Part shown: positions 28,951 to 50,336 of the stretch, piece by piece | Numbering within the stretch: the stretch's first letter is position 1 | Layout of the letters: every line of letters starts with the position of its first letter | DNA from: Pyrinomonadaceae bacterium | Lineage (GTDB): Bacteria > Acidobacteriota > Blastocatellia > Pyrinomonadales > Pyrinomonadaceae | DNA length: 64,000 nucleotides | Assembly (NCBI GenBank): GCA_044221625.1 | Contig: JBGAOU010000016.1 | Coordinates: forward strand, 12,709-76,708 | Direction of reading: 5' to 3' | Notes under the pieces: model-generated | The model's database searches: none | What the model saw: only the letters and a program-made list of their open reading frames with translations | Told to the model about the DNA's origin: nothing | Program-made: the position numbers and the translations under genes

Positions 28951-30175
28951 ATGAACAAACTCACATTCACAATACTCATCACGTTGGCCGCCATCTTTTC
29001 GGCGTTGGCACAAGAGCCTGATCGAGGCTTTCGTACCGCGAACTCATATGCTGCAACCGGGCTTGAGGTTGTCAACACAACGAACTGAAAACCGCTTGTT
29101 GCTCAATATACCATTGGCTTCATTGCCCGCAGGAAGAGGCACGAGTCCGGGCTATACGGTCTTCCTTCGGTACGACAGCAAACTGTTCGATTCGATACAT
29201 ACCACTCGTGATGACGGCTACCCGGACGAGAATGGCAGCAGCTATTTTTCGACCGATAGCCTATCTCTGAGCGAACGGGGCGGCTGGAAGATGCCGATCG
29301 GCTACCAACTCCAGATCACCGATCGACGAAATCTACAAACGGCAGATGTGTGCCACATGCACGACCCGGTCGAACAACTTTCCTTCGTTTGGAAGGTCGA
29401 AATGGTGATGCCGGACGGCAGTATTCGGACATTTCTTCCGGTTGCCGCAAACGGAACTTTTATCGGAACCGGAGCAGATGGATATTCCAACGTAAACTAT
29501 AACGGTGAGGAACTGACCGCAATTCAGGGGACCCATCCCGGATCGGGGACATGCTACACCGATGTAAGCAGCACCGGGCCAAACACAAGCGGAATGAACT
29601 ATGTCACGATGGACGGTTCGCGGCTTCGGTTGTTCATACCGTATTCGGCGACCGTCCAGCCGAACCTCCGCAATTGGAGGATGTATTATCCGGACGGCAC
29701 CGTTGTTGAACGAGCGCCGGCCAACTCAAGTGCATGGCAGACGATCACTGACAGAAACGGAAATAAGATCGAGTTTATCGACAACAAGATCCAGGATTCG
29801 GCCGGGAGATACATTGAATTTGCGTCTGACTCAACCGGGCAGATCGTTCGGACAAAAGGGGTCGGAGCAGCCGTTGTCGAAACCCACATCGAGTGGGAAA
29901 ACCGCTGGATACAGAAAAAATATCGAACAACAACAGCGAATAACGCTCAATCCTCGCAGCAATACGCGACGCTGGCCGCGAGCGTTTACGGTGTAAAGAA
30001 GATCACGTTTCCGACTCAGGCGGGCGGCCAAACGATGGCGTTTGAGTACTTTTCAAATGCGACCCAGCCCGGAGCCAATGTCTACACCGATGAGTGGGGT
30101 GAAATAAAGTCGATAGAATTACCGACCGGTGCGGAGAGCAGTTTTGTTTCGATCAGTTCGTCAGGGCGGCTATGA
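28951..30175 (+). pseudogene. N-terminal part of the main rhs gene, interrupted by a frameshift near 29086
   Basis: ATG 28951 (RBS ACGGAGG) encodes MNKLTFTILITLAAIFSALAQEP...GLEVVNTTN and stops at 29086-29088. ORF 29048..30175 continues in another frame with ENRLLLNIPLASLPAGRGTSPGYTVFLRYDS, the usual start of Rhs-family shells. The 3' end overlaps the next fragment. Confidence 0.7.
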
Positions 30176-33100
30176 AACGCTGGCGTCGGATGTTCTGACC
30201 AGAAGCGTCTCAAATAAGGAACTGGCGTACGACGAGGTGTACGAGGGGACGACTTCGCAACGAGTTGACCCATGGCTATATTCCATTTCGAAATGGGTCA
30301 GCACCATCACGATCCCGAGCGGAGCCGTGAGCAGCGAATATCTCTTTTACAATTCGAATGGATCGTATTGGGATTCCGGCATGTCGTATCGGTCGACCGG
30401 CCCGAATGGCGGGATCACTGAACGATTATGGGCGTACAACCTACCGTTCGCAATGTCAGGCAGCATTCCGCCGGCGAGTGGTGGCTGGTCGGGGGTCGGA
30501 AGCGCCAATTCCTACGTAAAAGCAGAGTTTTCGACGCTGCCCGACGCGAGTGGAAATATCTCATCATCATCACCGACCGCGATCAAGGAATTCAAATTCG
30601 ACAAGAACGGAAACGTCCTCGAAGTACTTGAATACGATTGGGTCACTTATGGTTCCGTACCGCGAAGCGGCAGCGGCATAAATGCCAAGGTCACCGGCCT
30701 GCCGACCAGCGGCCTGACGCTCAAGCGGAAGACGGTAAACACCTATTACAATCAAGCGGCGGATGCTGACAGCACGAGTGTGAACGGCAATGAGTATATG
30801 AGTCCTTCATCGCCGTCGCTTAAGAATCTCATCAGATCGACCGAGGTCCGCGATGGCAGCGGCGTTGTGAAGGCACGCTCAGAGTTCTACTATGACAGCA
30901 CCACCACAACGGGCAACCTGACGGAGACACGCGTTTGGGATTCGACCAAGGGAGCAGTTTCCGACCCGCTGACCACCGGTACGAGCGGAAACGCGGTTTC
31001 GACACAGGCGACTTATGATGCGTTCGGAAACCCGACGACCGCAACGGATGCAAAAGGCATCGTCTCAAAGATAACCTATGGGGCGGTATCGGGCCCGAAC
31101 GGAAACGTTACCGGACTTTACCCGACTGAGACGATCCTTGCCGACGGCACGTCGCTTGCCCGTACTTCAACGGCGAGTTACGATTTCTACACCGGAGCCG
31201 TACTTGCGACGACCGACGAAGACAACGACATCACGAACGCGACAGAATACGACGACATCGGTCGCCCGATAAAGGCGATCACGGCTCAGGGAACCGCTCT
31301 CGAATCCTGGACGATCACTGAGTATCACGACGATGACAGATTCGTAGTGGTCAAGTCAGATCTCGAAGCAAAAGGCGATGGCAAAAAGGTCGCGACGCAG
31401 TTCTACGATCAGCTTGGACGGGTGCGCCTGACAAAGACGTTGGAGGATGCGGCCACGCAATCCGCAACGAATGAAACTGACGGGATCAAGGTGCAGACGC
31501 GGTACGGTATCAACGACCCGACGCCGAGCGTGACAACCGACCCGGAGAACAGCCTCGGAAGCTATTCGCTGGTGTCAAATCCGTATCGGGCAGGCTCGTT
31601 GGCGGCGGCCTCGGCGGAGACGACAATGGGTTGGACATTATCGTATTCGTCAAAAACAGGACGACACAGCGACGCCACCACGTATTCGGGCTCGACCGTT
31701 CCGACAGTTGGAAGCACGACGAACTCGACGGGCGTCGTCCAGACGGACATCGACGCCAACGCCACCACGGTCACCGATCAGGCAAACAAGGTGCGCCGTT
31801 CGCTGACGAACGCACTTGGGCAGCTTATTCGCGTGGACGAGCCCAATTCGAGCAACCAATTAGGTACAGTAAGCAGTCCAAACCAAGCGACGAATTATAC
31901 TTACAACACGTTAGGCAAAATGGTTCGTGTGGAGCAAGGCAGTCAGAACCGGTATTTCATGTACGACTCGTTGGGTCGGACGCTGAGAATCAGGCAGCCG
32001 GAACAGGAGGTGAACACTGGGCTGAATACTTCTGGCGACCCGTATAACAATAGCTGGACTGGTGGTTTTACTTACGACAACAACGGCAATGTTCTGACCA
32101 CGACCGACGCCAAAGGCACGACGATAACAAACACCTACGACGCTCTCAATCGGCCTTTGACACGGACTTACAACGACAGTCCGCAAACAGCGACGGTTAC
32201 GAACACGTACGGCACCACTGCTCCTGCCATTGGCAAACTGATAAAGGTCTCAAGCAGCGTTTCGGAAACGCAGTACAGCGGGTTTGACGTGCTTGGACGC
32301 CTGACCGAGAGCAAGCAGATAACGCCTCTGGATGGCGAGACCATTTCGACGGCACCTGTGCGAACCAGCAGCTACCAATACAATCTGTCGGGTGCCCTTA
32401 TCCAGCAAACATACCCAAGCGGCCGCGTCGTCGAAACCGACCTCGATGCGAGTGGCGATATCGAAAAGATCACAGGACGTGCTACATCTAGTGGAATCAA
32501 CCACAACTTTGCTACTGCGTTTTCATACCTGCCCGATGGCAAGATCGCGAGTTTGAAACTTGGGAATGGTCTGTGGGAAGCTGCAAAGGTGAACTCAAGG
32601 CTGCAAGTAACTGAGATCGCGATGGGACATTCGATCGGAGACGGTGCGATGATGAAGCTCAATTACGAGTACGGCGAACTTCAGACAAACGGCACTGTCG
32701 ATGCGACTCAGAATGCAGGCAACATAGCCAAACAAACCGTGACTTTCAGTGGACTAGCTAATCCTTTCGTCCAAACTTACAAATATGATTCGTTAGATCG
32801 AATCAAAGAAGCGAAAGAAGCCGTGAATGGAAACCAAACGTGGATTCAGACGTTTGGGTATGATCGATTTGGTAATAGGAATTCACTCGCTGAAACCGTT
32901 AATGGACAAGCGAAATCGATCAATGAATTGACTCTTCCAACGGTTGACGCAAATACAAATCGGTTTTCTAGCACGACAAATTATGAGTATGACGAAGTTG
33001 GGAATTTGATCCGCGATGCGAATGGACGACAGTTCATTTTCAACGGCGATAATAAGCAGACTCAAGTAAAGGATGTCTCAGACAATGTTGTCGGAACCTA

Positions 33101-34265
33101 TGTTTACGACGGAAATGGCAAACGTGTAAAGAAGATAACCGCAAGTGAGGTAACGGTTTTCGTTTACGACGGGATGGGTAAACTTGTCGCAGAGTATTCA
33201 ACAGCAACGCCGCCTACAAATCCAACGGTCAATTACACAGCGACAGACACGCTTGGTTCGCCTCGCGTGCTGACAGATCAACTTGGTCAAGTCAGATCCC
33301 GCCGAGACTTTATGCCATTTGGCGAAGAAGTAGCCCTAGACTCCAACTATCGCACTACTGCCAACAAATACGGCACCGGTGACAAGGTCCGACAGAAATT
33401 CACCGGCTATCAGCGCGACGAAGAGACCGATCTAGATTTTGCAGAGGCTCGCTATTACTACAACGATCACGGCAGATTCACGGCAGTTGATCCGTTGCTT
33501 GCCTCTGGAAAAAATGTCAATCCCCAAACGTTTAATCGCTATGTCTACGTATTGAACTGTCCGCTTATGTTCACCGATCCTAGTGGACTACAGGCAGGAA
33601 GACAACAATACGGCACACAACCCCCGCCGACTAAAATCATCGATATTTTCGTCACGATTACCGTGAAGGAAAGGCAGAACACAGGTTCACAAAGAGATTG
33701 GAACGCGTTGGCAAAGTCGGCCCCGGGTTATCAAACGGTAAACGTCTACACTGTCGACGATGGCTCAGCTACGGTTGATCGTTTCAAATCATCGTTAGAG
33801 AGCGAAGGTCGAACCGTTGTCGTTTTCGGTCACTCCGTGGCTGAGAGCAAGGCGGTTAAGCAATCGACTGCAACCGGTAGCCGACTGGGGGGTATGGGCC
33901 TTTCCTTCTCGAATGGCACATTTCAGGGCAATGTCGCACTTCCGGATAACTCTCTTGGCCAGCCGGTTGACACGGTCAAGGCAGATAACGTGCTACTTTT
34001 CACTTGCGACTCTGGGACTGTTCCGACTGAGATTTGGTCGAGGATGGATGTGGGGGGCGAAGTGATCCAGAACGGTGGAGGGCCGAATGGCGCGTCGAGT
34101 GTAAAATATCAAGAGGAGGCCGCATATGCTGCAACAAGCAAACTTATAAATGGCGGAAGCATGAAGGAGGCACAAACTGCCGCGCAAAATGCTATAAACA
34201 AATCCACGATCCCAACACAGGATAAGGGGGATGTGATTTTGCGCTTTCAGCGGAGGGATCAGTGA
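30129..34265 (+). CDS. rhs: Rhs/YD-repeat protein core with C-terminal polymorphic toxin domain (main rhs, continues from 28951 across a frameshift)
   Basis: Many YD repeats: YDAFGNP, YDQLGRV, YDSLGRT, YDNNGNV, YDALNRP, YDSLDRI, YDRFGNR, YDEVGNL. Core end is FTGYQRDEETDLDFAEARYYYNDHGRFTAVDPL...NCPLMFTDPSGL at 33590. A unique 224-aa tail (33591-34262) follows. There is no in-frame ATG for the first 85 codons. Confidence 0.85.
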   Translation: MRRAVLFRSVRQGGYETLASDVLTRSVSNKELAYDEVYEGTTSQRVDPWLYSISKWVSTITIPSGAVSSEYLFYNSNGSYWDSGMSYRSTGPNGGITERLWAYNLPFAMSGSIPPASGGWSGVGSANSYVKAEFSTLPDASGNISSSSPTAIKEFKFDKNGNVLEVLEYDWVTYGSVPRSGSGINAKVTGLPTSGLTLKRKTVNTYYNQAADADSTSVNGNEYMSPSSPSLKNLIRSTEVRDGSGVVKARSEFYYDSTTTTGNLTETRVWDSTKGAVSDPLTTGTSGNAVSTQATYDAFGNPTTATDAKGIVSKITYGAVSGPNGNVTGLYPTETILADGTSLARTSTASYDFYTGAVLATTDEDNDITNATEYDDIGRPIKAITAQGTALESWTITEYHDDDRFVVVKSDLEAKGDGKKVATQFYDQLGRVRLTKTLEDAATQSATNETDGIKVQTRYGINDPTPSVTTDPENSLGSYSLVSNPYRAGSLAAASAETTMGWTLSYSSKTGRHSDATTYSGSTVPTVGSTTNSTGVVQTDIDANATTVTDQANKVRRSLTNALGQLIRVDEPNSSNQLGTVSSPNQATNYTYNTLGKMVRVEQGSQNRYFMYDSLGRTLRIRQPEQEVNTGLNTSGDPYNNSWTGGFTYDNNGNVLTTTDAKGTTITNTYDALNRPLTRTYNDSPQTATVTNTYGTTAPAIGKLIKVSSSVSETQYSGFDVLGRLTESKQITPLDGETISTAPVRTSSYQYNLSGALIQQTYPSGRVVETDLDASGDIEKITGRATSSGINHNFATAFSYLPDGKIASLKLGNGLWEAAKVNSRLQVTEIAMGHSIGDGAMMKLNYEYGELQTNGTVDATQNAGNIAKQTVTFSGLANPFVQTYKYDSLDRIKEAKEAVNGNQTWIQTFGYDRFGNRNSLAETVNGQAKSINELTLPTVDANTNRFSSTTNYEYDEVGNLIRDANGRQFIFNGDNKQTQVKDVSDNVVGTYVYDGNGKRVKKITASEVTVFVYDGMGKLVAEYSTATPPTNPTVNYTATDTLGSPRVLTDQLGQVRSRRDFMPFGEEVALDSNYRTTANKYGTGDKVRQKFTGYQRDEETDLDFAEARYYYNDHGRFTAVDPLLASGKNVNPQTFNRYVYVLNCPLMFTDPSGLQAGRQQYGTQPPPTKIIDIFVTITVKERQNTGSQRDWNALAKSAPGYQTVNVYTVDDGSATVDRFKSSLESEGRTVVVFGHSVAESKAVKQSTATGSRLGGMGLSFSNGTFQGNVALPDNSLGQPVDTVKADNVLLFTCDSGTVPTEIWSRMDVGGEVIQNGGGPNGASSVKYQEEAAYAATSKLINGGSMKEAQTAAQNAINKSTIPTQDKGDVILRFQRRDQ

Positions 34266-34882
34266 AGATTGTAAAATTCAAATCTGTGAGAATGTTTGTA
34301 CTTGTTGCAGCAATGACTGCTGGAATTATCAGTTGTGGTTCTGAAGATCCGACCACAACGGGCTCTGGCCCTGTTGCCAGCGCCCAAAATACCCGAACTG
34401 TTACGCCACAGGGGATTCGACGCTCAGACGGCGGCACGACCTTCCTGCGGGTGGACGGCTGGCCGATTCCATCATTTGCCGGAGCGGAAAGGGAGGAATT
34501 CGAAACTTCGATCATGACCTCCGATGGACGAAGCGTTAAGGCCCACCTCACGGTCATACGAACGGATCCGCTCTCCCTGATTATCGATAATCCCCTCTAC
34601 TTTACGGGCACAGGCCTTGAGAAAGTTCGAGTTAACAAGGTGAAGGAATATCGCACGTCGGCAGGTGTTTTCTCATACAGGTTTCTCGTAAATGACGCTG
34701 ACGTCGATAAAAACACGAACGAAGTTCGCTCAACTCGGGGCTTCCTATACTCCTACTCGTATTACGATGAGGACGGCGACGGCGTGTTCGAGTCGCTGGT
34801 CGTCAGCGAACAGGACCGCAGCGGGTTGAAAGGGTTCCAGAATGAACCCCACCTTCCTGAGTGGTCCACTTTGTCCAGATAA
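34262..34882 (+). CDS. putative cognate immunity lipoprotein for the main Rhs toxin
   Basis: The start overlaps the rhs stop (GTGA). Lipoprotein-like MFVLVAAMTAGIISCGS and an EF-hand-like YYDEDGDGVFE. Position is immediately 3' of the toxin tail. Confidence 0.6.
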   Translation: MKIVKFKSVRMFVLVAAMTAGIISCGSEDPTTTGSGPVASAQNTRTVTPQGIRRSDGGTTFLRVDGWPIPSFAGAEREEFETSIMTSDGRSVKAHLTVIRTDPLSLIIDNPLYFTGTGLEKVRVNKVKEYRTSAGVFSYRFLVNDADVDKNTNEVRSTRGFLYSYSYYDEDGDGVFESLVVSEQDRSGLKGFQNEPHLPEWSTLSR

Positions 34883-35029
34883 CGGAGAAGACGGGGTCAT
34901 CTATGAAGTTCACCGAATAAGTCAAACTCACGGGGTCCTGGACGACGGTCGCTGACGCGGTCGGTGTGCTGGTTCGGTGACAAGGGAAATGGCCATGGCC
35001 TGAGATGTTGCGGACTTGAATTGATTGAT

Positions 35030-37330
35030 ATGTACGGGACCGCGAGGACCAACGACACGCTCAAATACCTGACGACGGTCACACAAGGCTCGCAGACGAG
35101 GACATTCACTTACAACAGCCTTTCGAGGCTGCTTTCGGCGGCGAATCCGGAATCGGGCACGATCAGCTACGGCTATGATCCAAATGGCAATCTGACGAGC
35201 AAGGTTGATGCAAGGTCGATAACGACAAGCTACCTTTACGATGCCCTGAATCGCGTGACGGATCGCAACTACACGAACGAGCCAAGCGGTTCCGAAACGC
35301 CGGATGTTGACTACTTCTACGGCACCACGGCGCCGAAAGTCGGAAAGCTGACGAAAGTTAGTTCGTCCGTTTCGACAACCGAATACACGTCGTTCGACAT
35401 CTTAGGACGTGTGACCGCTCACAAACAAACAACCGATAGCAACGAGTACACGACCGGCTACACATACAAGCTCAGTGGTGCGTTAGACGAGCAAACATAT
35501 CCCTCAGGTCGGGTTGTGAAAAATGAGTTAGACGCATCGGGCGATCTGTCGTTGGTTACAAGTAAGGAAAACTCTTCGGCGATCTACAAGACTTACGCCA
35601 ACGATTTTACTTACACGGCGGCTGGTGCAATATCGAGCCTAAAACTCGGAAATGGAAGATTTGAATCAACGCAGTTCAATAACCGCTTGCAACCGACTCA
35701 AATCGCGTTGGGTTCGTCCGTTGGTAATGCCGGACTTCTGAAAATCGACTACACCTACAACACGACCGGCAACGCCGACAACAACGGAAATCTGCTAAGC
35801 CAAACGATCACGGTTCCCGGTCTAAGCCATCCGTTCGTTCAAACCTACACTTACGACGAGCTCAATCGTTTGAAGTCAGCCACCGAAACCAACAACTCGA
35901 CACAGACTTGGAAGCAGACCTTCACGTTCGACAGATACGGTAATCGGCGTTTTGACGAGGCGAATACCACGATGCCAACTTCGTTCTCGAACCAGGCTTT
36001 GACGAATCCGACTATTTCGACGAGTAATAATCGGCTGACTTCGACGGGTTGGACGTACGATTCGGCGGGAAACACTATTGGCGATCCTGACGGCCGTAGT
36101 TTCATTTACGACGCTGAGAATAAGCAAGTCGAAGTAAAGAACTCAAGCAATGCCAGTATCGGAACTTACTTTTTCGACGGCGACGGAAAGCGCGTCAAAA
36201 AGGTTGTGCCCGTAACAGGCGAAACAACGATTTTCGTCTACGACGCGAGCGGAAAATCCATCGCCGAATACTCAACCGTCGTCGCAAATACCGAAGATGC
36301 AAAGGTAAACTACCTAACCGCCGATCATCTTGGTTCGCCCAGAATCAACACAGATGCTACAGGCACCGTCATCGCCCGGCACGATTACCATCCGTTTGGT
36401 GAAGAAGTTACGACCACCCAACGAACAGGCGGTCTCGGATATGCCTTGGACACAATTCGTAAGCAATTCACTGGGTATGAACGGGATATTGAGTCAGAAC
36501 TGGACTTTGCTCGAAATCGTTATTACAACTCAAATCACGGAAGGTTCACTACGACCGATCCGTTACTGACTTCTGGGAGACTTGAAGACCCGCAGTCGTG
36601 GCATCGCTACTCTTACGTGCTGAACAGCCCGCTTCGATATGTTGATCCGTTAGGACTATATGAATGTGGCACAAGTCTAAAAGAAAAACAGTGTCAGAAG
36701 TTTGAACAAGCTCGCCTAGACCTGGAAAAGGCCCGTGATTATTACCAAAAGAAAGGGGATACAACGAAGGCGGATGCACTAAGCAACGCGCTGAAAGCAA
36801 TTGGAACATTGAACGACAAAAATGGACTTACAATTGAGATTGGTAAGGTCTCAAAAGGAGCGGCGGCAGAAACAAGCTTTGGAATAGGTGCTGACGGGAA
36901 ACCTCTTCTGGCGAAGGACGCAGACGGTAAAGGAAATTATGTCGCTAATGTTGTCATGACGTTTAAATCTGCCGATGACATGACCGCAGAGGTCCTTTCT
37001 CACGAAGGAAGTCATACAGAAGATCGGCAGAAGTTTATTGCTGCGATGTTTGCAGCTTCCGCAAAAGATCCTCTTTTTACTGATGAGATGGCTAAGAGTT
37101 TACCGGAAAATCTAACGAAATACGCAACTGAGTCAAAAGCCTATCATAACTCATCGTATGTTCAAGAATATAAAGGAACTGAAGGGGATTATTGGAAACG
37201 TGGTTGGGCAGAGGTAGATCGACAGAAGGCTATCGATTATACGCTTCGCACAAGCGATCTTTATAAGGTTACTCCGAAGCCTGGGGAACAGGGTCGAAGA
37301 CTCTACGAAACAGCACCACCTAAGCCATGA
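35030..37330 (+). CDS. orphan Rhs fragment 1: about 545 aa of Rhs core plus HExxH metallopeptidase-like toxin tail
   Basis: ORF 34964..37330; first ATG is at 35030. It is collinear with the 3' half of the main rhs (TAPKVGKLTKVSSSVSTTEY, YPSGRVVKNELDASGD, YDRYGNR, FTGYERDIESELDFARNRYYNSNHGRFTTTDPL, DPLGL at 36644-36658). The 223-aa tail contains HEGSH (37001-37015). Confidence 0.8.
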   Translation: MYGTARTNDTLKYLTTVTQGSQTRTFTYNSLSRLLSAANPESGTISYGYDPNGNLTSKVDARSITTSYLYDALNRVTDRNYTNEPSGSETPDVDYFYGTTAPKVGKLTKVSSSVSTTEYTSFDILGRVTAHKQTTDSNEYTTGYTYKLSGALDEQTYPSGRVVKNELDASGDLSLVTSKENSSAIYKTYANDFTYTAAGAISSLKLGNGRFESTQFNNRLQPTQIALGSSVGNAGLLKIDYTYNTTGNADNNGNLLSQTITVPGLSHPFVQTYTYDELNRLKSATETNNSTQTWKQTFTFDRYGNRRFDEANTTMPTSFSNQALTNPTISTSNNRLTSTGWTYDSAGNTIGDPDGRSFIYDAENKQVEVKNSSNASIGTYFFDGDGKRVKKVVPVTGETTIFVYDASGKSIAEYSTVVANTEDAKVNYLTADHLGSPRINTDATGTVIARHDYHPFGEEVTTTQRTGGLGYALDTIRKQFTGYERDIESELDFARNRYYNSNHGRFTTTDPLLTSGRLEDPQSWHRYSYVLNSPLRYVDPLGLYECGTSLKEKQCQKFEQARLDLEKARDYYQKKGDTTKADALSNALKAIGTLNDKNGLTIEIGKVSKGAAAETSFGIGADGKPLLAKDADGKGNYVANVVMTFKSADDMTAEVLSHEGSHTEDRQKFIAAMFAASAKDPLFTDEMAKSLPENLTKYATESKAYHNSSYVQEYKGTEGDYWKRGWAEVDRQKAIDYTLRTSDLYKVTPKPGEQGRRLYETAPPKP

Positions 37331-37782
37331 GAAGAAAAATGCTTGTCAAAATGTTAATTTCTGCTGTGCTTTGTATTTGTCTCGGAAACGGACATCAGGT
37401 TTTGTGTCAGCAAGCTGATTCGAATCCACCTGTAGTTGAGGCAGTGATCCCTGTTTTTCCAGCTACAGCGATTGCTACAGCACAAGAAGGACAGGTTTTG
37501 CTTCTTGTTATGGTCCGAAATGACGGTAAGGTTAAATCAGTGGAATTCAAATCGGGTCCGTCCATATTTAGACCGGTTGCAAAGCTGGTTGCATCGCGCT
37601 GGAAGTTTGCTCCAACGAAGAGTTCTACGACATGTTCGGTACAACTCTCATTCATTTTCAAATTAATGCCTGATGAAACCAAATCTGAGGACATGCTTCC
37701 TGTTTATCGGCCCCCATATGAAGTTGAAGTACGAGCGAAGCTTCCGAGCGTGTCAAAGGATGCAGGTCAAGATCAAAATTAG
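37327..37782 (+). CDS. secreted TonB C-terminal-domain-like protein, putative immunity for orphan toxin 1
   Basis: ATGA overlap with the upstream stop. Signal peptide MRRKMLVKMLISAVLCICLG. VIPVFPATAIATAQEGQVLLLVMVRNDGKVKSVEF...ASRWKFAP matches the TonB_C pattern. Confidence 0.6.
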   Translation: MRRKMLVKMLISAVLCICLGNGHQVLCQQADSNPPVVEAVIPVFPATAIATAQEGQVLLLVMVRNDGKVKSVEFKSGPSIFRPVAKLVASRWKFAPTKSSTTCSVQLSFIFKLMPDETKSEDMLPVYRPPYEVEVRAKLPSVSKDAGQDQN

Positions 37783-37833
37783 CCGTAATACTTCTAACCT
37801 GTGATCGGGTCGGAAATCGAAAATAATGCTTGA

Positions 37834-37859
37834 CAGCCTTTTTGCGAAGGCTGTTTTTT
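37834..37859 (+). terminator. rho-independent terminator closing the rhs / orphan-1 transcription unit
   Basis: CAGCCTT - 6-nt loop - AAGGCTG followed by TTTTTT. Confidence 0.75.
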
Positions 37860-38346
37860 ATGCTTTTTGCTGGTTGCTCTCTAAGACTGTGTCGAGGAAT
37901 TGCAGGATGAAGTCCTGCTTTTTCTTTGGCAGGCGGCGGACTTCCTGGAATCTTCTCTCTAAGGGCGTAACTGGTCCGGTCTTTTTCTTTTTCAGTGTCG
38001 GCTCGTCGTCCGCTCCGACGAGGTAGGAAGCGGAAACGTCCAGGACTTTGGCGCAGGCCTGCACGACTTCTAGGGCGGGGTTGACGGCCCGCCGCTCGTA
38101 GTCGTCGATCATCTTCACGTTCGTATCGATGGCGTCGGCGAGCACCTCGGGCACATCGCCCTCGCTGATCTTGAGCGCAAGGCCCTCGGCAAGAGCGGTC
38201 TTGCCGACGCCGGGTTCGCCGACGTAGAGCGGGTTATTCTTCTTGCGGCGGCAGCTGGGACTCAAGCAGTCGTATCCACGCCTGCGGCTGCGACTGCCGC
38301 AACGACCGCATCTAGCGGACAAGGCGATGTAATCGCATTGCCGCAT
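37858..38346 (-). pseudogene. chimeric gene remnant: ClpA-like Walker-A fragment fused to the C-terminal part of an XRE-type HTH protein
   Basis: aa 33-72 are [40 protein letters not shown], the ClpA/ClpB D1 P-loop region (about 38131-38250). They join directly to ..[39 protein letters not shown], helices 2-5 of an XRE HTH. The N-terminal 32 aa are Arg/Cys junk. Confidence 0.65.
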
Positions 38347-38955
38347 GCTCCAGCGTCAGAGTCGGCGTCGATTTTTCCGTGCCAAAAACTACTCGAAGAC
38401 TGTAGTTCGCCGTCATCAAGCGGTTCATTGGACACGTCTCAGAACGAAGAACTGGATACGGTCAAGGCTATCAAGGCCGCATACAATATTTGTTCCTTGA
38501 TACCGGGAATCGGATCTGCGTGCGCAGCAGCGTCGGTAATAGTAAGTGCGGGACAAGGAAACCTTGGTGAGGCCGGAACCAATGCTCTAATGGTAATCCC
38601 CGGGCTCAAGCAGCTTAAAGGTGTCGGTTCTGTTGTACGGGCAGCTGATGATGTAGCCGTCTACGTGTCGCGTGTAGGAAACGACATTCAATATGTTGGA
38701 CTTACCAGTAATATAATTAGACGGGCGGGGGAACATTTTAGATCTACGGGAATTGCAATCGAACCGTTGATCGGAGGTCTAACGAGAGCCGAAGCGAGAG
38801 GTGTAGAACAGGCGTTAATTAAAATACATGGTCTTCAGAAAAATGGTGGTACGTTACTAAATAAAATCAACAGCATTGCAAAATCCAATCCGAAATATGA
38901 ACAACTAACCAAAAGAGGGTTTGAGATTTTACGTGAAAATGGCTACACATGGTAA
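38338..38955 (+). CDS. orphan toxin cassette 2: pre-toxin Gly-rich linker plus GIY-YIG-like nuclease domain (no Rhs arm, no ATG start)
   Basis: [27 protein letters not shown]...[15 protein letters not shown]...LLNKIN reproduces the GIY..YIG..R..H..E..N order of GIY-YIG (URI) nucleases. The upstream [13 protein letters not shown]...[21 protein letters not shown] resembles a pre-toxin TG linker. The frame opens with TTG; the first in-frame ATG is at codon 85. Confidence 0.55.
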
Positions 38956-39416
38956 GAACAATGAAGATACAAATGGGTGATACATTCGAAATCAAGACAG
39001 CTCAGGGATTAGGTTATATACAGTTTGCTTACCGCGATAAAAACGGAATTGAATATGTTCGAGTTATACGTGGACTGTTTGATAGTCGACCAGCTGGTTT
39101 GGTCGATTTGGTTGGCAAAAAAGAACAGTTCATTGTTGGATTTCCGTTAACTATTGCCGCTAACAAGGAACTTGTAAATTACGTCGCCCGCTTCCTGCTC
39201 CCAGCAGATTTTGAAATGCCGCGATATATGAGGGCAAAGCATTATGTCAGAGGAAAGTTTCTTGGTTGGCATATCGTAGATATTAGTAATTGGAAAAGAA
39301 AGCTAGTCTCGAATTTAAGTGAACAAGAAGTGAAAATGTCTCCGTTGGGAGTTTGGAATGACACATTGTTAAAAGAGCGGATAGCTACCGGTTGGTGTTT
39401 AGAAAACTGGGTCTGA
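38949..39416 (+). CDS. putative immunity protein for orphan toxin 2
   Basis: Its ATG overlaps the toxin stop by 7 nt. 155 aa, low GC, no family recognised. The call is positional. Confidence 0.5.
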   Translation: MVRTMKIQMGDTFEIKTAQGLGYIQFAYRDKNGIEYVRVIRGLFDSRPAGLVDLVGKKEQFIVGFPLTIAANKELVNYVARFLLPADFEMPRYMRAKHYVRGKFLGWHIVDISNWKRKLVSNLSEQEVKMSPLGVWNDTLLKERIATGWCLENWV

Positions 39417-39512
39417 CGGTTTTCTTTCCAGCTATTCGTTTACGACGCCGGAGGTGCGCTTGCGGCGGAGTATTCGACACAGGTCGAGACGGCAAACCCA
39501 CAAGAAAGCTAT

Positions 39513-40790
39513 TTGACAACAGACCACCTGGGAAGCCCGCGCGTGATCACCGACAAGAGCGGCAACGTTATTTATCGCAGAGACTTCATGCCATTTGGTG
39601 AAGAACTCTCAGAAGGAGTCGGGACCAGAAGCACGACTCTGAAATATGCCGCCAGCGGAACTGATGGCGTTCGTAAACGCTTTACGGGCTACGAGAAGGA
39701 TGCTGAGACCGATCTCGATTTCGCCGAGGCCCGAATGTATCAAAACAAACACGGGCGATTCACCGCCGTCGATCCATTGATGGCTTCCGCCAGTCCCGGC
39801 GACCCTCAGACTTACAACCGATATTCATACACTGGAAACAACCCCATCAATCGCACCGATCCGGCAGGTTTGAAGTGGTGTAGAGAGGACGCAACGGGCA
39901 ATGCCAAATTCACCGGTGAAGGAACCGCTTTTGATAAAGGATGGACGGGTTTTGATGATCAAGAGAGAAGAGTGTCCAACGGGGGTAATTTCAATGGAAC
40001 GTATTTAGCCACTGGCCAAATTGCGTTTTTCAACTCTAATGGATCGATAGAGCTTCGTGAGAAGCCGAGTGAATCAGATCAAGTTGAAAGACAAAATCAG
40101 AATGTAGTACAGGGTCAAAATGAAGTTATAGAGTCATCTGTAACGGAACTGGCGACCAATATCACGATCAGACCACGAGCCGATCTTCCGCTGCCTCCTT
40201 GCGTCCCAGGCACGGGTTGTCAGGATGTCTCAAAACCAAGCCCGCCGTCACTAGAAGTGGGGGCAAGCGCCGACGAAGTCCTCGACGCGACGCAGACAGT
40301 AACAGAAACGATCGGTCTCGTCCCGGGTCTCGAAGTTGCAGATCTGGCTTCCGGGGCGATTAGTGGATTTCGCGGTGATTACACCGGGATGATCCTGAGC
40401 GCCGGGGCTATTCTTCCGGTTGGCGGTCAAGTATTTACAGGTGTTAAATGGGCTCGGCGTTTAGAAAAGGCTCGAGAACTTGGTAAAGCTGGAGAATTAG
40501 CCGCTGGCATTACCGAAGCTAAAAAAGCAATCGAAGTTGGTGGTCGAAAACTGTTTCCGGACGCGGTTGATAACGTTGCAGGCGTACTTACAGAAGTCAA
40601 AAATCTCGGAAAGCAGAGTTATACTAGACAACTGCGAGAATATAGCAAATATGCGCGGTCGCAGCCTGAAAAGATGGATTTTGTCCTATTTACTCGAAGT
40701 GACACGATCTTGTCCGGCCCGCTTAAGCGAGAAATTAGCAGCGGCAACATCATTCACAAATGTTTCGATGGTCCGTGCAAACAATTCTAG
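39513..40790 (+). CDS. orphan Rhs fragment 3: last ~150 aa of Rhs core plus PD-(D/E)xK (Tox-REase-7-like) nuclease tail
   Basis: The open frame actually begins at 39417, directly after and in frame with the TGA of the preceding gene (..FVYDAGGALAAEYS..). DHLGSPRVITD, FMPFGEE, FTGYEKDAETDLDFAEARMYQNKHGRFTAVDPL and DPAGL mark the core, whose end is at 39872. The tail has a PT-TG-like GLVPGLEVADLASGA.. and then FPDAVDNVAGVLTEVKNLGKQSYTRQLREY (PD..E.K). Confidence 0.7.
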   Translation: MTTDHLGSPRVITDKSGNVIYRRDFMPFGEELSEGVGTRSTTLKYAASGTDGVRKRFTGYEKDAETDLDFAEARMYQNKHGRFTAVDPLMASASPGDPQTYNRYSYTGNNPINRTDPAGLKWCREDATGNAKFTGEGTAFDKGWTGFDDQERRVSNGGNFNGTYLATGQIAFFNSNGSIELREKPSESDQVERQNQNVVQGQNEVIESSVTELATNITIRPRADLPLPPCVPGTGCQDVSKPSPPSLEVGASADEVLDATQTVTETIGLVPGLEVADLASGAISGFRGDYTGMILSAGAILPVGGQVFTGVKWARRLEKARELGKAGELAAGITEAKKAIEVGGRKLFPDAVDNVAGVLTEVKNLGKQSYTRQLREYSKYARSQPEKMDFVLFTRSDTILSGPLKREISSGNIIHKCFDGPCKQF

Positions 40791-40805
40791 AGAACTCAGT
40801 TAGAT

Positions 40806-41444
40806 ATGAACTTGAACGAACGCATTTACGAATTAAACGCTAGGTTCAATGAACTAGTTGGGAAATCACCTAAAACGCCAACGGAAATGGAGGAGAAGGA
40901 GTTGGTTCGGGCCGAATTAGAAAAAGCACTGCTAAAACAGTCGCAACCTCTTCACGATGACGTTTTGGCAGTCGGCATTCGAATCAAATCCGTTTCGGAT
41001 TTCGTTAATACTGCAGATAAATACCCAGAGGCAATTCCGGTACTTGTCAAGCACCTGACAAGACCGTACCACCAACGAACAAGGGCAGGCATAGTCCGGG
41101 CTTTGACTGTAAAAGAGGCCAAAGGCATCGCCAATAAAGCAATACTTGCGGAGTACCGTAAGGCTCCGAAGGACGACTTTCATTTTGCCTGGTTATTTGG
41201 AAATGCCATGAGCGTCATAGTGACGGCGGACGATCTAGAAGAATTGATCGATATCGTCAAGGATGAAAGCAACGGCGAATCGCGAACCGGATTCATCGAG
41301 GCCTTGGCGAAGATCAGATCGCCCCGAGTTATTGAAGTACTCCATCAACTCGAAAAAGATAAGAATCGGATAGTGGCCGAACGGGCAATGAAAATGCTCG
41401 CCCGAAAAGCGAAATCACCAGACCGAAAAACACGTTCACGCTGA
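40806..41444 (+). CDS. HEAT-repeat-like protein, putative immunity for orphan toxin 3
   Basis: AIPVLVKHLTRPYHQRTRAGIVRALT and ESRTGFIEALAKIRSPRVIEVLHQLEKDKNRIVAERAMKML resemble PBS-lyase/HEAT repeats. It lies 15 nt after the toxin stop. Confidence 0.55.
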   Translation: MNLNERIYELNARFNELVGKSPKTPTEMEEKELVRAELEKALLKQSQPLHDDVLAVGIRIKSVSDFVNTADKYPEAIPVLVKHLTRPYHQRTRAGIVRALTVKEAKGIANKAILAEYRKAPKDDFHFAWLFGNAMSVIVTADDLEELIDIVKDESNGESRTGFIEALAKIRSPRVIEVLHQLEKDKNRIVAERAMKMLARKAKSPDRKTRSR

Positions 41445-43774: not shown

Positions 43775-45385
43775 ATGCAGGACGCGATACTAAAATTCGG
43801 CGGCGTTCAACGTGTGATCGACAGCGACGTTACCGCTATCGGCCGCACGTCGGACAACGCGGTCGCCTTTACGTCCGATACCAACGTGTCGCGCTATCAC
43901 GCCGAGATCGAACGCCGCGGCGGCGATCATTACCTCATCGACCTGCAGAGCAGCAACGGCACGACCGTCAACGGGACGCGCGTCAGCGGCGAGGTGCTAT
44001 TGGCTCCCGGAGACGTCATCGTATTTGGAGGTTCGAGCGAGGCCGTTTTTGACCTTGCTGACAGTTCGGCAAACCGCGCCGCCTCCGGCACCGACGCCGC
44101 GGGTGATAGCGGCCCGTCACTCGCCGACGCTCCGGGAATGTCGGCCGCCGGCAGCGAGTTCTCATCGCTCGGTTCACAGGCGTCGAGCGAGGCCGAATAT
44201 GCCGCCCGCAACGCCCTCCAACAGGGCATCAGCAACGCGACGGGCGCCGATGTGCCGACGTCGTCGTCAAATCCGACCGTGCTGATCGCCGGCATCGTCG
44301 TCGGGCTGGCGGTCGTCTGTGCGGTCGCGGCCGGTGCGTTTTACCTGACGCGCGGAACCTCCGCCTGCAACGCGACGGCCCGGATCGTCAAGCCCGAAGC
44401 CGGCGACACGATCAGCTCGCCGGTCGAGATCGAGGTCGAGTCCGACAACACCTCGTGCGTCGAACGTGCCGTCTTTCTACTTGACGGCCAGGAAGTCGCG
44501 ACGGCCGCCGGGCCTAATTTTTCGGCGACCCTCGACCCGAAAGAGCACCCCGAACTCGCCGACGGTGTCGATCACAGCCTCGAGATAGTGCTGATCGATC
44601 AGGACGGCCGTCAGATACCGCAGGGCGGCGGTATTGCCCTTGCTTTTGAAACGCGGGCCGTCGCCAAACCGTCGCAAACGCCGGTCGTCGCCCAGGCGAA
44701 CACCCAGCCCGGCAAGCCGGCGGGCCGCGGACAGCCTTCGCTGGTGCAGGTGAGCGATATGACACAGCGTCTGGTCAGGCAATTTTCGGGTAGTTTCAGC
44801 TACAACGTCTCGAACAAGCAATTTTTGCAAGAGGTGCAAAAGCGTGCGGCCGAATACGCGGTCGAGGGTTATTCGCAGCGGGCCGCAGTTTATCGCGACA
44901 CTATCAACACGGCGTTCGTCCGCGAACAGAACATCGATCCGCCGTTTGCCTACTTTACGGCGATGGCCCGCAGCCGGTTCGCCGTCGAAAAACAGGGCTC
45001 GGACGAGGGGCTTTGGCGATTGACGGCCGCCTTTGTCACCGACAACAAATACAACGGAATGTGCGGGACCGAGACGCTCTCCGACCCGTCGCAGACATGC
45101 GCCGCACGCTCGGCCGCACTGTACGCCAAGGCGTTGATCTTCGGCGTTTTTGACGGCGACACGATCTACGGCGCCATCGCCTTTGGCAAATCGCCGCAGG
45201 ACGCCGCCGCGTGGAAGGCGACTCTGCCGCAGAACCGCTCCGACGTTTGGAATTCGGTCCGGACACCGGCCGAACGCGAGCAGTTGGTGCGTTTTTTCGC
45301 GGCCGGGATCGTCGCCGAAAACCCGCAGGCGTTCGGGCTCACGAAGGACCGTCCGCTGTCGGACCTCTACCGCGTGGCGATGTAA
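43775..45385 (+). CDS. FHA domain - TM - Ig-like - degenerate SLT-like domain protein (paralog A)
   Basis: FHA: GRTSDNAVAFTSDTNVSRYHAEI..DLQSSNGTTVNG. TM: LIAGIVVGLAVVCAVAAGAFYL. The C-terminus is collinear with paralog B, but the catalytic E-S is replaced (AMARSR) and GLMQ becomes GLWRL. Confidence 0.75.
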   Translation: MQDAILKFGGVQRVIDSDVTAIGRTSDNAVAFTSDTNVSRYHAEIERRGGDHYLIDLQSSNGTTVNGTRVSGEVLLAPGDVIVFGGSSEAVFDLADSSANRAASGTDAAGDSGPSLADAPGMSAAGSEFSSLGSQASSEAEYAARNALQQGISNATGADVPTSSSNPTVLIAGIVVGLAVVCAVAAGAFYLTRGTSACNATARIVKPEAGDTISSPVEIEVESDNTSCVERAVFLLDGQEVATAAGPNFSATLDPKEHPELADGVDHSLEIVLIDQDGRQIPQGGGIALAFETRAVAKPSQTPVVAQANTQPGKPAGRGQPSLVQVSDMTQRLVRQFSGSFSYNVSNKQFLQEVQKRAAEYAVEGYSQRAAVYRDTINTAFVREQNIDPPFAYFTAMARSRFAVEKQGSDEGLWRLTAAFVTDNKYNGMCGTETLSDPSQTCAARSAALYAKALIFGVFDGDTIYGAIAFGKSPQDAAAWKATLPQNRSDVWNSVRTPAEREQLVRFFAAGIVAENPQAFGLTKDRPLSDLYRVAM

Positions 45386-45386
45386 A

Positions 45387-46799
45387 ATGAAGCAGGTCAC
45401 CCTTACATACCGAACGCCCAATGGCACGCAAACGATCGCGATCGACGGCGAACGGCTGTCGTTCGGACGCGGCAGCGAGGCCGATCAGCGGTTTGCCGAC
45501 AATGGCCTTTCGCGGCTGCACGCGGTCATTTACCGCGAGGGCGACCGCATCTGGATCGTCGACGAAAATTCGACCAACGGCACCTTTGTCAACGGCGAAC
45601 GCGTCGCCGCGGCCGGAACGCCGCTGCGCGACGGCGACCGTATCAATCTCGGCGATAACACGACCCTGACCGTCAGCGTCGCCGAACCAACTCCCGCCGC
45701 AGCCGCGGAGCCGCCCGCCGTTCAGTCGGTTTCGGCCGGCGCACCGCCGGCAAGTTTCGGTATGCTGCCCGTCATCGTAATTGCGGTCGCGATAATGGTG
45801 ATCAGTGTTTCGGCCGTTTTGATCGGTTTTGCGGTATTCGACAGCGGGCCGCAGATAGCGTCGAACCGCGACTTTGATGAGCCGATCGATGACGACCCGC
45901 GGCCTTCGCCGACGCAAAAACCGTCGGGTTCGCCGGCGTCATCGCCGGGAACCGCCGGCAATTCGAACGCCGCTGCCGACGACCTGCCAGCCAACGGGCC
46001 GGCCGGGCCGACGAACAACCTGCCGCCCGGCAAGAAATATGCCGAGATGACCGATACCGAACGCCGCCAGTACATCGAAGCAAAGGCGATGCGGATCGCC
46101 CAGATCATCGGCAACAGCGGCAGCGAGGCGATACCCGCCGCGGCCGTCGATAAGATCAAGGGGTTTGTTGACGGATACGCATCGCGGGCGAAGGTAAAGC
46201 CGCTCGGCGGATGCCGGTTCGGCGATAATCTGCAGGTGACGTTTGAACGCGCGAGCAAGAACGCACCTTTTGTCGTTCGCGCGTTCAACGAAAAAGGCAT
46301 CGATCCGCGGATCGGGCTCTATCTCGCGATGATCGAATCGGAACACTGCGTTTGCCTGCAGAGCCCGACCGGGCCGCTCGGGATGTTTCAGTTTACAAAG
46401 GCCACCGCCGAGATCCACGGCCTCAAGGTGATCTCCGGCGCTTCGCCGTCAAACCCCGACGAACGCTGTCAGCCCGAGCCCGCCGCGAGGGCCGCCGCGT
46501 CGTATATGAAGGCTCTGACCGGCCGCTACGGCACGGGCCCGGCGAGCGTACCGCTGGCGATCGGCAGTTATAACAGCGGCGAGGGCGGCCTGAGTTCGAA
46601 CCTGCAAAAGGCACTCGACTCAAACTCCGGGCTGCCGCGTGATTTTTGGACACTTATCGCAAACGGCGACAAGCTTTCGAAACAATTCCAGTCGGAGAAC
46701 TTCAAGTACGTTCCGAAGTTCTTTGCGGCCGCCATCATCGGCGAAAACCCGCAGGATTTCGGGCTGAACCTACAGCCCGTCTCGACGTATACCAAGTAG
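45387..46799 (+). CDS. FHA domain - TM - lytic transglycosylase (SLT) domain protein (paralog B, catalytic motifs intact)
   Basis: ORF 45150 trimmed to ATG 45387, 2 nt after the upstream stop. FHA: FGRGSEADQRFADNGLSRLHAVI..DENSTNGTFVNG. TM: LPVIVIAVAIMVISVSAVLIGFAVF. SLT motifs: LAMIESE (Glu codon 46335-46337), GPLGMFQF and AIGSYNSGEG. Confidence 0.8.
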   Translation: MKQVTLTYRTPNGTQTIAIDGERLSFGRGSEADQRFADNGLSRLHAVIYREGDRIWIVDENSTNGTFVNGERVAAAGTPLRDGDRINLGDNTTLTVSVAEPTPAAAAEPPAVQSVSAGAPPASFGMLPVIVIAVAIMVISVSAVLIGFAVFDSGPQIASNRDFDEPIDDDPRPSPTQKPSGSPASSPGTAGNSNAAADDLPANGPAGPTNNLPPGKKYAEMTDTERRQYIEAKAMRIAQIIGNSGSEAIPAAAVDKIKGFVDGYASRAKVKPLGGCRFGDNLQVTFERASKNAPFVVRAFNEKGIDPRIGLYLAMIESEHCVCLQSPTGPLGMFQFTKATAEIHGLKVISGASPSNPDERCQPEPAARAAASYMKALTGRYGTGPASVPLAIGSYNSGEGGLSSNLQKALDSNSGLPRDFWTLIANGDKLSKQFQSENFKYVPKFFAAAIIGENPQDFGLNLQPVSTYTK

Positions 46800-46815
46800 G
46801 ACCGCCGTCGCAACG

Positions 46816-48060
46816 ATGCCTGAACTTTTTCTCAAATTTAAGGACATCAACGGCCAGGAGCAACGCGTCCCGGTCGATAAGGTCAAGTTTGCCGTCGGGC
46901 GGCACTCGGCAAATGACCTCGCGATCGCTGACGGCCGGCTTTCGCGTGAGCACCTGCTGATCGAGCGTTTCGGAGATGTTTTTGTGGTCTCGGATCGCGG
47001 ATCGAGCAACGGCTCGAAACTGAACGGCGAGGCCCTGACCGCACCGGCGGCGATCACCGAAAATTGCCGTCTCGACCTGGGCGGATTTGAGATCGATGCC
47101 GAATTCGAGACGGACCAGCCGGAAGCTCAGCCCGCCGAGGAACCCGCGGCCGCCGCCGCACCTCCGGCCGCGCCGCCAGCCGCCCCTGCACCGGGTGGCA
47201 TCCCGACGAGCTTTTTTTATATTGCGCCGGCGGTCGCCGTTTTCATACTTGTCGGCGTGGGGCTGGCCTTGTTTCTGTTTGGCGGCAATGGGAAACAGCA
47301 AAATCGCGACATCGTCATAACCGACGACCCGATCGACGAGCCGGTCAAGCGAAAAACGCCGGTTGGACCGACCACTTCGGCCGCAAATTTGGGTGACGTT
47401 GTGCCGTCAGGCCCGACTCCGACGGGCAACACCGATGTGCCCGCGATGCCGCCCGCGGGTGACCTGACAGAAACCGCGAAACTCGAGGAAAACGCCAAGA
47501 GCTTTCTGCGGGCGATCGCACAGAATGACAAACGCGGCTTTATTACGGGTGCCAACGCCCAAATCGTCGGTGCCCGGATCGCCTCGATCAAGTCGAGTTC
47601 GTCGCTAGCCGACAACATCGCCTCGGCGCGAAAGAGCGCGGGCCAGATCCGCACGCTGGCACAATCAAAGAACCTAAAACCGCAGCTGCTCGCGGCGGCG
47701 GCGATCACAAAACTCGGTTCGCAACGCGGCGACGTGCTTCAGACCGCCCAGTCGATGGCCGATACGCTCGACAAATTGAGCGTTCAGGTCGGCAACGAGC
47801 TCGGCGACGATTGCCTGTTGATGATCGCCGCGTATGACCAGGGAGCCTCGGGCGACTTTATGCGGATGCGCAATATGCTGCAGAAACTTGCTACCGACTC
47901 GCCGCAGCTCGTCCGCGAGATCCGCACGATCTGGTACTTGAAAAAGAACGGCAAGATCACCGACAGCGAATACGATTTTGCCGTCCGTTTCCTTGCCGTC
48001 GGAACGATTATGCAAAATCCCAAGGCGTTTGGCGTCAATACTGAGGCACCTGGACTATAA
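46816..48060 (+). CDS. FHA domain - TM - degenerate SLT-like domain protein (paralog C)
   Basis: FHA: VGRHSANDLAIADGRLSREHLLI..DRGSSNGSKLNG. TM: FFYIAPAVAVFILVGVGLALFLF. The C-terminus keeps MIAAYDQGASG and the ..VGTIMQNPKAFGVN tail shared with A and B, but lacks the E-S catalytic motif. Confidence 0.75.
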   Translation: MPELFLKFKDINGQEQRVPVDKVKFAVGRHSANDLAIADGRLSREHLLIERFGDVFVVSDRGSSNGSKLNGEALTAPAAITENCRLDLGGFEIDAEFETDQPEAQPAEEPAAAAAPPAAPPAAPAPGGIPTSFFYIAPAVAVFILVGVGLALFLFGGNGKQQNRDIVITDDPIDEPVKRKTPVGPTTSAANLGDVVPSGPTPTGNTDVPAMPPAGDLTETAKLEENAKSFLRAIAQNDKRGFITGANAQIVGARIASIKSSSSLADNIASARKSAGQIRTLAQSKNLKPQLLAAAAITKLGSQRGDVLQTAQSMADTLDKLSVQVGNELGDDCLLMIAAYDQGASGDFMRMRNMLQKLATDSPQLVREIRTIWYLKKNGKITDSEYDFAVRFLAVGTIMQNPKAFGVNTEAPGL

Positions 48061-48064
48061 GATT

Positions 48065-48868: not shown

Positions 48869-48976
48869 CGCTTGTTTCAACTGACCGGAAACTATCGCCC
48901 TGCAACGGGTTATTACGTGTTTTGCGCCATTTACTAATTGGCGAACTCGGTTTACTATTTACCTCTAAACTGGCTT

Positions 48977-50329: not shown

Positions 50330-50336
50330 TTGTCAT

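Follow-up and report, generated by a model that had tools for sequence, protein, structure and literature searches.

A predicted caspase-fold tail on an Rhs protein and its candidate lipoprotein immunity partner in an acidobacterium of activated sludge

What kind of toxin, if any, is carried by an Rhs protein whose C-terminal tail matches no curated family, and what does the gene that overlaps its stop codon encode? This question is raised by a locus in a Pyrinomonadaceae bacterium (Acidobacteriota; GenBank assembly GCA_044221625.1), for which we analyzed a 64,000-nucleotide stretch of contig JBGAOU010000016.1 (positions 12,709 to 76,708; referred to here as the window). The rhs gene in the window ends in a tail of 224 amino acids (aa), and directly behind it lies a gene for a candidate immunity protein (Table 1). 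We consider it probable that an Rhs polymorphic toxin carries this tail as toxic cargo and that the tail has a clan CD fold, a catalytic dyad of His81 and Cys139 (tail numbering), and an action on the cell envelope that the downstream lipoprotein would block. Coordinates are those of the window unless another locus is named.

Results

A tail family with two invariant residues

The tail begins directly after the DPSGL motif that closes the Rhs-associated core and runs to a TGA stop codon at 34263-34265. Its start and length had been given in a preliminary description of this DNA, made from the sequence alone, and were confirmed by direct reading and by the end of the match to the core. His81 and Cys139, which the same description had singled out as potential catalytic residues, were likewise found exactly where it had placed them, 58 residues apart. 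Comparisons of the tail with Pfam, NCBIfam, PADLOC, and the sequences of Protein Data Bank (PDB) chains returned no match, and a profile of 30 tail sequences likewise returned nothing meaningful.

When 1.84 billion representative proteins were searched exhaustively with HMMER, 41 relatives with E values of <1e-3 were recovered, 13 of which had E values of <1e-10. The three weakest of the 41 matches were repeat proteins and were disregarded. The domain was C-terminal in every other relative and, wherever upstream sequence existed, followed the DPxG[LK] end of an Rhs core. The clusters of these relatives bear only the names "Acidobacteria bacterium" and "RHS repeat-associated protein." A search with a 5-sequence alignment located two genome loci of the family, and 3 of 121 sampled genomes of the phylum contained it; the family is rare, with the patchy spread typical of polymorphic toxin modules.

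In a MAFFT alignment of the relatives, Cys139 was kept in 39 of 39 sequences and His81 in 36 of 37, the sole exception being a fragment. Conservation of this pair is far beyond chance: across 30 relatives in alignment A1 (mean column identity, 27%), no other column is invariant. Five further columns (G8, G80, A131, G164, and D214) were nearly invariant, and A1 was without any conserved stretch of 7 to 10 columns. Loss of the His and Cys among homologues, the outcome that the preliminary description had named as speaking against its reading, was absent from A1. The motif at the histidine read G-H-S in 24 of the 30 sequences. Cys139 was the sole cysteine in 26 of the 30 domains, a composition that would suit a thiol enzyme acting outside the cytoplasm.

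Predicted fold and structural neighbors

The AlphaFold2 model of the tail, computed from A1, had a predicted local distance difference test (pLDDT) score of 89.8 and a predicted template modeling (pTM) score of 0.87. Its six strands (b1, residues 15 to 22; b2, 48 to 54; b3, 74 to 80; b4, 133 to 137; b5, 157 to 161; b6, 216 to 220) are separated by helices: two short ones after b1, one after b2, one at residues 86 to 95 that is followed by a short hairpin before b4, and long ones before b6. In the model, His81 stands directly after b3 and Cys139 after b4. The resulting order of elements, b1-a-b2-a-b3(His)-a-b4(Cys)-a-b5-a-b6, is that of the caspase-hemoglobinase fold as established for clan CD, with His81 and Cys139 at its two catalytic positions.

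When the model was compared with the PDB by Foldseek, ranks 1 to 10 were all occupied by clan CD enzymes, i.e., MALT1 paracaspase, caspase-11, caspase-8, and caspase-6 (E values of 2e-3 to 1.6e-2, probabilities of 0.63 to 0.97, and template modeling [TM] scores of 0.33 to 0.46), and gingipain R appeared at rank 35. In a comparison with BFVD, the best match was unnamed (E value, 8.4e-4; TM score, 0.49), and ranks 2, 4, and 5 were metacaspase-like, Peptidase C14, and caspase-domain proteins of giant viruses. Taken singly, these scores are marginal; it is the agreement across the two libraries that carries the weight. A caspase- or legumain-type fold, with His after one strand and Cys after a later one, had been anticipated in the preliminary description; the model accords with that expectation in showing a caspase-type alpha/beta sandwich, and the structural comparison that the description had recommended yielded fold evidence that is consistent, if statistically marginal. 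We infer, with good support, that the tail adopts a clan CD fold with a His81/Cys139 dyad.

Sequence profiles were compared in addition. Alignments of Peptidase_C14 and CHAT were built from acidobacterial genomes and compared pairwise by hhalign, without secondary structure. A1 scored 30.0 against CHAT, with 141 to 194 aligned columns that placed GHS on tHG and FsC on SAC; it scored 20.6 (P = 0.032) against C14, in an extended alignment that placed His on His and Cys on Cys. The P value of 1.6e-3 for the CHAT comparison is not specific by itself, because the unrelated alpha/beta pair C14 and Response_reg reached a P value of 1.5e-3 (score, 26.0). A P value near 1e-3 from a single hhalign pair of alpha/beta families is not to be taken as homology. 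The positive control, C14 against CHAT, scored 59.0 (P = 6e-8). Scores for A1 were 12.9 to 13.5 against reversed profiles (P = 0.33 to 0.46), at most 15.6 and 18.1 against 30 column-shuffled profiles of CHAT and C14, respectively, 12.1 (P = 0.34) against Response_reg as an alpha/beta decoy, and 15.8 (P = 0.19) against the immunity family described below. The alignments of A1 with CHAT and C14 are weak but colinear, and both catalytic residues are matched; this link between sequence profiles appears supportive of a relationship with clan CD.

A coupled gene for a candidate immunity lipoprotein

The gene behind the tail starts with a GTG codon at 34262 that overlaps the stop codon of the toxin (GTGA). 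Its product, which contains YYDEDGDGVFESL, begins with the leader VKIVKFKSVRMFVLVAAMTAGIIS-C; a lipobox, I-I-S-C, lies at residues 22 to 25 (Cys codon, 34334-34336) and fits the pattern [LVI][ASTVI][GAS]C, and the Cys column is kept in most of 26 homologues. Homologues numbered 27 at 52 to 99% identity, plus two at approximately 32%. Within a loop of the calcium-binding type, Y168, D169, G172, D173, G174, F176, E177, and L179 were invariant in 26 sequences, including pairs that are only 23 to 28% identical, and F137, Y139, and a P-x-x-P-x-W motif were also invariant in the family. A lipoprotein-type leader and a DEDGDG loop had both been noticed at first inspection of the coupled reading frame; they are present at the positions reported then, and they are conserved across the downstream family. 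The protein gave no match to Pfam, NCBIfam, PADLOC, or PDB-chain sequences. In its AlphaFold2 model, the first 40 residues are disordered and residues 50 to 206 form an all-beta domain with a pLDDT score of approximately 90, for which Foldseek found no credible match in the PDB (best E value, 0.07; TM scores of ≤0.24).

A member of the immunity family was located directly 3' of the toxin in all six loci with downstream DNA (i.e., the window, L001, L002, L003/L004, L005, and L093/L096), as determined by a hidden Markov model (HMM) scan and inspection; the remaining locus, L092, ends at a contig edge and was left out of this count. The immunity gene follows an orphan 271-aa toxin in L002 and, in L003/L004, an orphan toxin of 79% identity from a Pyrinomonadaceae metagenome-assembled genome (MAG). 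Locus L005, from an Acidobacteriota MAG, encodes a full 1746-aa Rhs protein with a Sec leader; its toxin and its immunity protein are both 28% identical (E value for the immunity protein, 1e-8). In genome G017 (L093/L096), an orphan toxin with GHG and FACDS motifs is followed by a 341-aa secreted protein with the sequence YVDEDGDGVFE. The toxin and its partner diverge in step and remain adjacent.

Two members of the immunity family depart from this pattern in their architecture or setting. The partner in G017 (L096, 9503-10528) is apparently a tandem duplication of the immunity domain in which the loop YVDEDGDGVFE is kept in the first copy only; it has a signal peptide, and a canonical lipobox is absent. 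A second, diverged immunity copy in L003 (8341-8871, minus strand; E value, 2.3e-9) lies approximately 1.6 kb from the toxin/immunity pair with no adjacent toxin, as an orphan immunity gene.

The rhs gene and its frame breaks

As written in the window, the tail closes a frame of 1378 codons (30129-34265) and not the intact gene of 1770 aa, which starts at ATG 28953. The 1378-codon frame holds the RHS/YD repeats and the Rhs-associated core (TIGR03696, Rhs_assc_core; residues 1077 to 1154, ending at DPSGL), with the tail at its end. Repeat matches in the shell (RHS_repeat and YD_repeat_2x; PF05593, E value of 4e-18 in six stretches, and TIGR01643, E value of 4.5e-16) place the protein among Rhs/YD-repeat polymorphic toxins. 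A Pfam search of the N-terminal 400 aa found no domain and no PAAR; the Rhs protein of L005 has a Sec-type leader of the same kind as the one predicted here.

The frame is broken by four extra bases with a T-for-G change at 29086-29094 and by two missing bases at 30146-30159. P0004, a near-identical 1770-aa protein from another metagenome assembly, has the Sec-type leader MNKLTFTILITLAAIFSALA-QEP and a 100% identical tail, and the intact frame was found in contigs from four of four independent activated-sludge, wastewater, or bioreactor metagenome runs. Because these four runs carry the intact version, the breaks are private to this assembly. They represent either consensus (assembly) errors or a recent strain-private inactivation of a gene that is intact in the wider population. 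The source acidobacterium is common in activated sludge, recurring across metagenomes of this kind.

Proposed activity and alternative explanations

In the explanation that we favor, the Rhs shell would enclose the tail, and autoproteolysis at DPSGL would free it. His81 and Cys139, which stand at the ends of strands 3 and 4, respectively, would act as the catalytic dyad of a cysteine peptidase, or of a closely related thiol amidase or transamidase, which after delivery would cleave an essential envelope or periplasmic substrate of neighboring bacteria. The downstream lipoprotein, tethered in the periplasm, would bind and block the toxin, possibly in a calcium-dependent manner via the DxDxDG loop, and would protect the producer and its kin. 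Toxicity and thiol-dependent peptidase activity of the tail are both predictions of this explanation.

Several points weigh against this explanation. No Pfam or NCBIfam clan CD model matches the tail, CHAT matching 1 of the 30 members at an E value of 0.14; the P value obtained with CHAT has the lack of specificity noted above. No PDB match found by Foldseek was better than an E value of 1e-3, and all TM scores were <0.5. The presumed proximity of His81 and Cys139 was judged from the topology of the model. The His-Gly motif at the catalytic His, a feature frequent but not universal in clan CD, was mostly not found in the family (GHG in 2 of 30 sequences). The copy of rhs in the window, with its two frame breaks, may be inactive or misassembled. 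As for the site of action, the leader and predicted location of the immunity protein are the one pointer to the periplasm, and since the Rhs protein is itself Sec-exported, the protection given by a periplasmic immunity protein might extend no further than the periplasm of the producer.

The points concerning the fold bear on the possibility that the structure prediction is misleading, i.e., that the tail has another alpha/beta fold, Rossmann-like or flavodoxin-like, in which the conserved His and Cys would serve to bind a metal or a cofactor or take part in unrelated chemistry. The marginal Foldseek scores would fit such a case, as would the flavodoxin-like and kinase folds that appear from rank 11 onwards and hhalign P values of a size also obtained with an unrelated alpha/beta pair. 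However, the ten best PDB matches and the best named viral matches are all caspase-fold enzymes, and both catalytic positions of the caspase fold are precisely where the invariant residues stand. Moreover, the profile alignments run colinearly and match the two catalytic residues, and the Response_reg decoy scores just 12.1 against the tail family; we therefore regard a different fold as decidedly unlikely. A serine esterase or lipase of the alpha/beta-hydrolase type, using G-H-S-x-A as its nucleophile elbow, is hardly credible. GHSVA does resemble the lipase motif GHSxG, the domain is alpha/beta, and one cutinase appears among the PDB matches (rank 42; E value, 0.32). Yet 6 of the 30 relatives have G, T, N, A, or I in place of Ser82, while His81 and Cys139 never change in that alignment, and because of this substitution GHSxA is not a serine nucleophile elbow. 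Position 84 is variable without a conserved Gly, no conserved Asp/His pair and no conserved later His follow the motif, and the top structural matches are clan CD enzymes. The hydrolase reading, already set aside in the preliminary description, is close to refuted by the variation at Ser82. Tox-HDC and LD-peptidase toxins were also considered; the tail has no Pfam match to either, and its predicted alpha/beta fold is presumably at odds with theirs.

If the clan CD fold is accepted, two other roles have to be weighed against that of a toxic peptidase. Caspase-like domains with His and Cys were defined computationally in polymorphic toxins as Tox-Caspase, and most of them are releasing peptidases, whereas some C-terminal versions are toxins (Zhang et al. 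2012, PMC3482391). On that precedent, the domain could be a processing peptidase or its remnant and not the toxic agent. We consider this very unlikely and rejected it on the terminal position of the tail and its dedicated immunity gene: there is nothing further downstream to release, the Rhs core has a DPxGL autoproteolytic site of its own, an overlapping and co-diverging immunity gene accompanies the domain in every locus, and orphan cassettes that pair the domain with an immunity gene exist as well. The tail could also have the proposed fold and dyad but, instead of cleaving protein, be a thiol amidase or transamidase whose substrate would be peptidoglycan stems, lipoprotein anchors, or some other small molecule of the envelope. 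The cell wall is the target of many known antibacterial toxins that act in the periplasm, and clan CD includes transamidases and ligase-like legumains; the immunity protein is predicted to be exported and lipid anchored, and a single Cys per domain would suit an extracytoplasmic thiol enzyme. Nonetheless, Pfam, NCBIfam, and PDB Foldseek comparisons revealed no likeness to known cell wall amidase families, and the closest structural neighbors are all endopeptidases. The data do not tell substrates apart, and such an enzyme seems unlikely to us beside the toxic peptidase proposed above.

Genomic context and delivery

Downstream of the toxin/immunity pair lies the usual Rhs array of orphan cassettes (Table 1), of which the toxins of the GIY-YIG-like and HEGSH cassettes have no Pfam assignment. 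Between orphan cassettes, a 162-aa open reading frame (37858-38346, minus strand) combines a Clp/AAA Walker-A-like fragment with an HTH_3 match and is apparently a chimeric remnant.

A complete type VI secretion system (T6SS) core set is encoded on the same strand and contig as rhs, 9 kb away, and forms the only T6SS cluster of the genome. The only VgrG match in the genome (G000:C8:79082-80059; L094/L097) lies beyond this cluster, some 45 kb downstream of the toxin and approximately 2.4 kb past the 3' end of the window; it is within an open frame of 1118 aa, which leaves room for a C-terminal extension. No PAAR or VgrG/adaptor linkage of the Rhs protein was found: the sole PAAR-like match, a marginal one, is located on another contig, an Eag/DUF1795 gene was not detected, and rhs has no adjoining vgrG. 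Delivery could take place by either the T6SS or a Sec-dependent route.

Just upstream of rhs lie a gene for a secreted propeller protein of the BNR/Sortilin type with FG-GAP repeats at its C terminus (23768-27091) and a second, fragmented FG-GAP open reading frame (27635-28846). In L005, an FG-GAP protein ending in IPVPAYFRR (1-591) is likewise encoded directly upstream of the Rhs protein. It is possible that the FG-GAP protein is a conserved partner of Sec-leader Rhs proteins, with an accessory or adhesive function.

TABLE 1 Features of the rhs locus and its surroundings in the window
Feature	Coordinates	Strand	Description and basis
Full-length rhs gene	28953..34265	+	Sec-type leader, YD/RHS-repeat shell, Rhs-associated core, and toxin tail; 1770 aa when intact
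Predicted Sec signal peptide of Rhs	28953..29015	+	MNKLTFTILITLAAIFSALA, before QEP; read from sequence
DPSGL	33576..33590	+	End of Rhs-associated core, conserved autoproteolytic release site before toxin; TIGR03696 match
Toxin tail	33591..34262	+	224 aa, predicted caspase-hemoglobinase (clan CD) fold; AlphaFold2 model, Foldseek, relatives
His81 codon (cac)	33831..33833	+	Putative general base in the motif G-H-S (RTVVVFGHS), immediately behind strand b3; conservation, alignment with catalytic His of CHAT and Peptidase_C14 profiles
Cys139 codon (tgc)	34005..34007	+	Putative nucleophile in the motif F-[TS]-C (NVLLFTCDSG), two residues past strand b4; conservation, alignment with catalytic Cys of CHAT and Peptidase_C14 profiles
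Candidate cognate immunity gene	34262..34882	+	206 aa, lipoprotein leader, linker of ~25 residues, all-beta domain; homologues, synteny, AlphaFold2 model
Calcium-binding-type DxDxDG loop	34763..34798	+	Invariant, Y-D-E-D-G-D-G-V-F-E-S-L; YDEDGDG at 34763-34783
Three orphan toxin/immunity cassettes	34964..41444	+	Usual Rhs array downstream of pair
Rhs fragment with HEGSH tail	34964-37782		With secreted TonB_C-like protein
Tail-only cassette (GIY-YIG-like)	38338-39416		With small open reading frame
Rhs fragment with Tox-REase-7	Within 34964..41444		With HEAT protein
T6SS cluster	43775..64000	+	Three FHA proteins, TssK, TssL, TssM, TagJ, TssA, TssB, TssC, Hcp, TssE, TssF, TssG, AAA ATPase

Discussion

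The preliminary description did not recognize the tail as a described toxin family. This stands at the level of sequence, where Pfam, NCBIfam, PADLOC, and PDB chains provide no match, but not at the level of class, since the Tox-Caspase class was defined in 2012 (PMC3482391). Like Tox-Caspase, the tail has a predicted caspase-like alpha/beta fold with a His-then-Cys dyad and is the C-terminal-most domain of an RHS-repeat toxin followed by an immunity gene. The contexts listed for Tox-Caspase include RHS repeats and the type II secretion system (T2SS), a Sec-type (T2SS) leader is among its listed export modes, and the listed immunity proteins are Imm36 and Imm57; Acidobacteria are absent from its phyletic list (PMC3482391). 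Unlike the described versions, the tail has no sequence-level match to curated clan CD models and carries G-H-S instead of H-G, and the protein paired with it, an exported all-beta lipoprotein bearing a DxDxDG loop, is unrelated to those listed. By predicted fold, dyad, and position, the tail family falls within the Tox-Caspase definition, which supports its description as a new family of an already described kind, with a new exported immunity family. No experimentally characterized caspase-fold Rhs or T6SS toxin, and likewise no substrate or structure of a toxin-immunity pair, turned up in literature searches.

Compared with clan CD peptidases in general (caspases and MALT1 of C14, CHAT, and gingipain of C25), the tail is predicted to share the order of elements of its best structural neighbors, in which strands 3 and 4 are followed by His and Cys, respectively, and aligns colinearly, though weakly, with the CHAT and C14 profiles. 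It differs in being a compact domain of approximately 205 residues without an intersubunit linker or prodomain, in having a beta hairpin (residues 103 to 113) and a low-confidence stretch in the loop between helix 3 and strand 4, and in its proposed use as an interbacterial toxin with a dedicated inhibitor.

The Rhs protein as a whole resembles both the PAAR-Rhs/Eag effectors of the T6SS and the Sec-dependent WapA and Tc-toxin TcC proteins, with which it shares a YD-repeat shell, a DPxGL release site, a variable tail, an adjacent immunity gene, and downstream orphan cassettes. The T6SS cluster on the same contig is a further likeness to classical Rhs/T6SS effectors. In contrast to PAAR-Rhs effectors, its N terminus is a Sec leader and not PAAR, and the Eag/DUF1795 gene and adjoining vgrG are missing as described above; unlike the classical effectors, it has an FG-GAP repeat protein gene upstream, both here and in the distant relative L005. 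One could go further and see in this locus the first clan CD enzyme to serve as a periplasm-acting interbacterial toxin, controlled by a new calcium-binding all-beta lipoprotein inhibitor without a known structural relative and carried on a Sec-exported Rhs cage instead of a PAAR/VgrG spike. As a joint claim this is conceivable, and we hold it to be doubtful; if true, it would mean that Rhs proteins of Acidobacteriota have an undescribed T6SS-independent route of delivery or that a periplasmic Rhs protein is passed in some unusual way to the neighboring T6SS.

Since their definition in 2012, the caspase-like domains of polymorphic toxins have been known from computation only. The tail family offers a clean test case for them, with a domain of approximately 205 residues, a single Cys, an obvious dyad, and a compact putative cognate inhibitor without a known fold match. 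If its target is periplasmic, the tail would represent a new enzymatic class among antibacterial toxins directed at the cell envelope, and its partner would represent a new protein inhibitor scaffold for clan CD peptidases. The locus also shows that an uncultured acidobacterium of activated sludge possesses Rhs toxin arrays and a T6SS; contact-dependent competition has been little studied in this environment.

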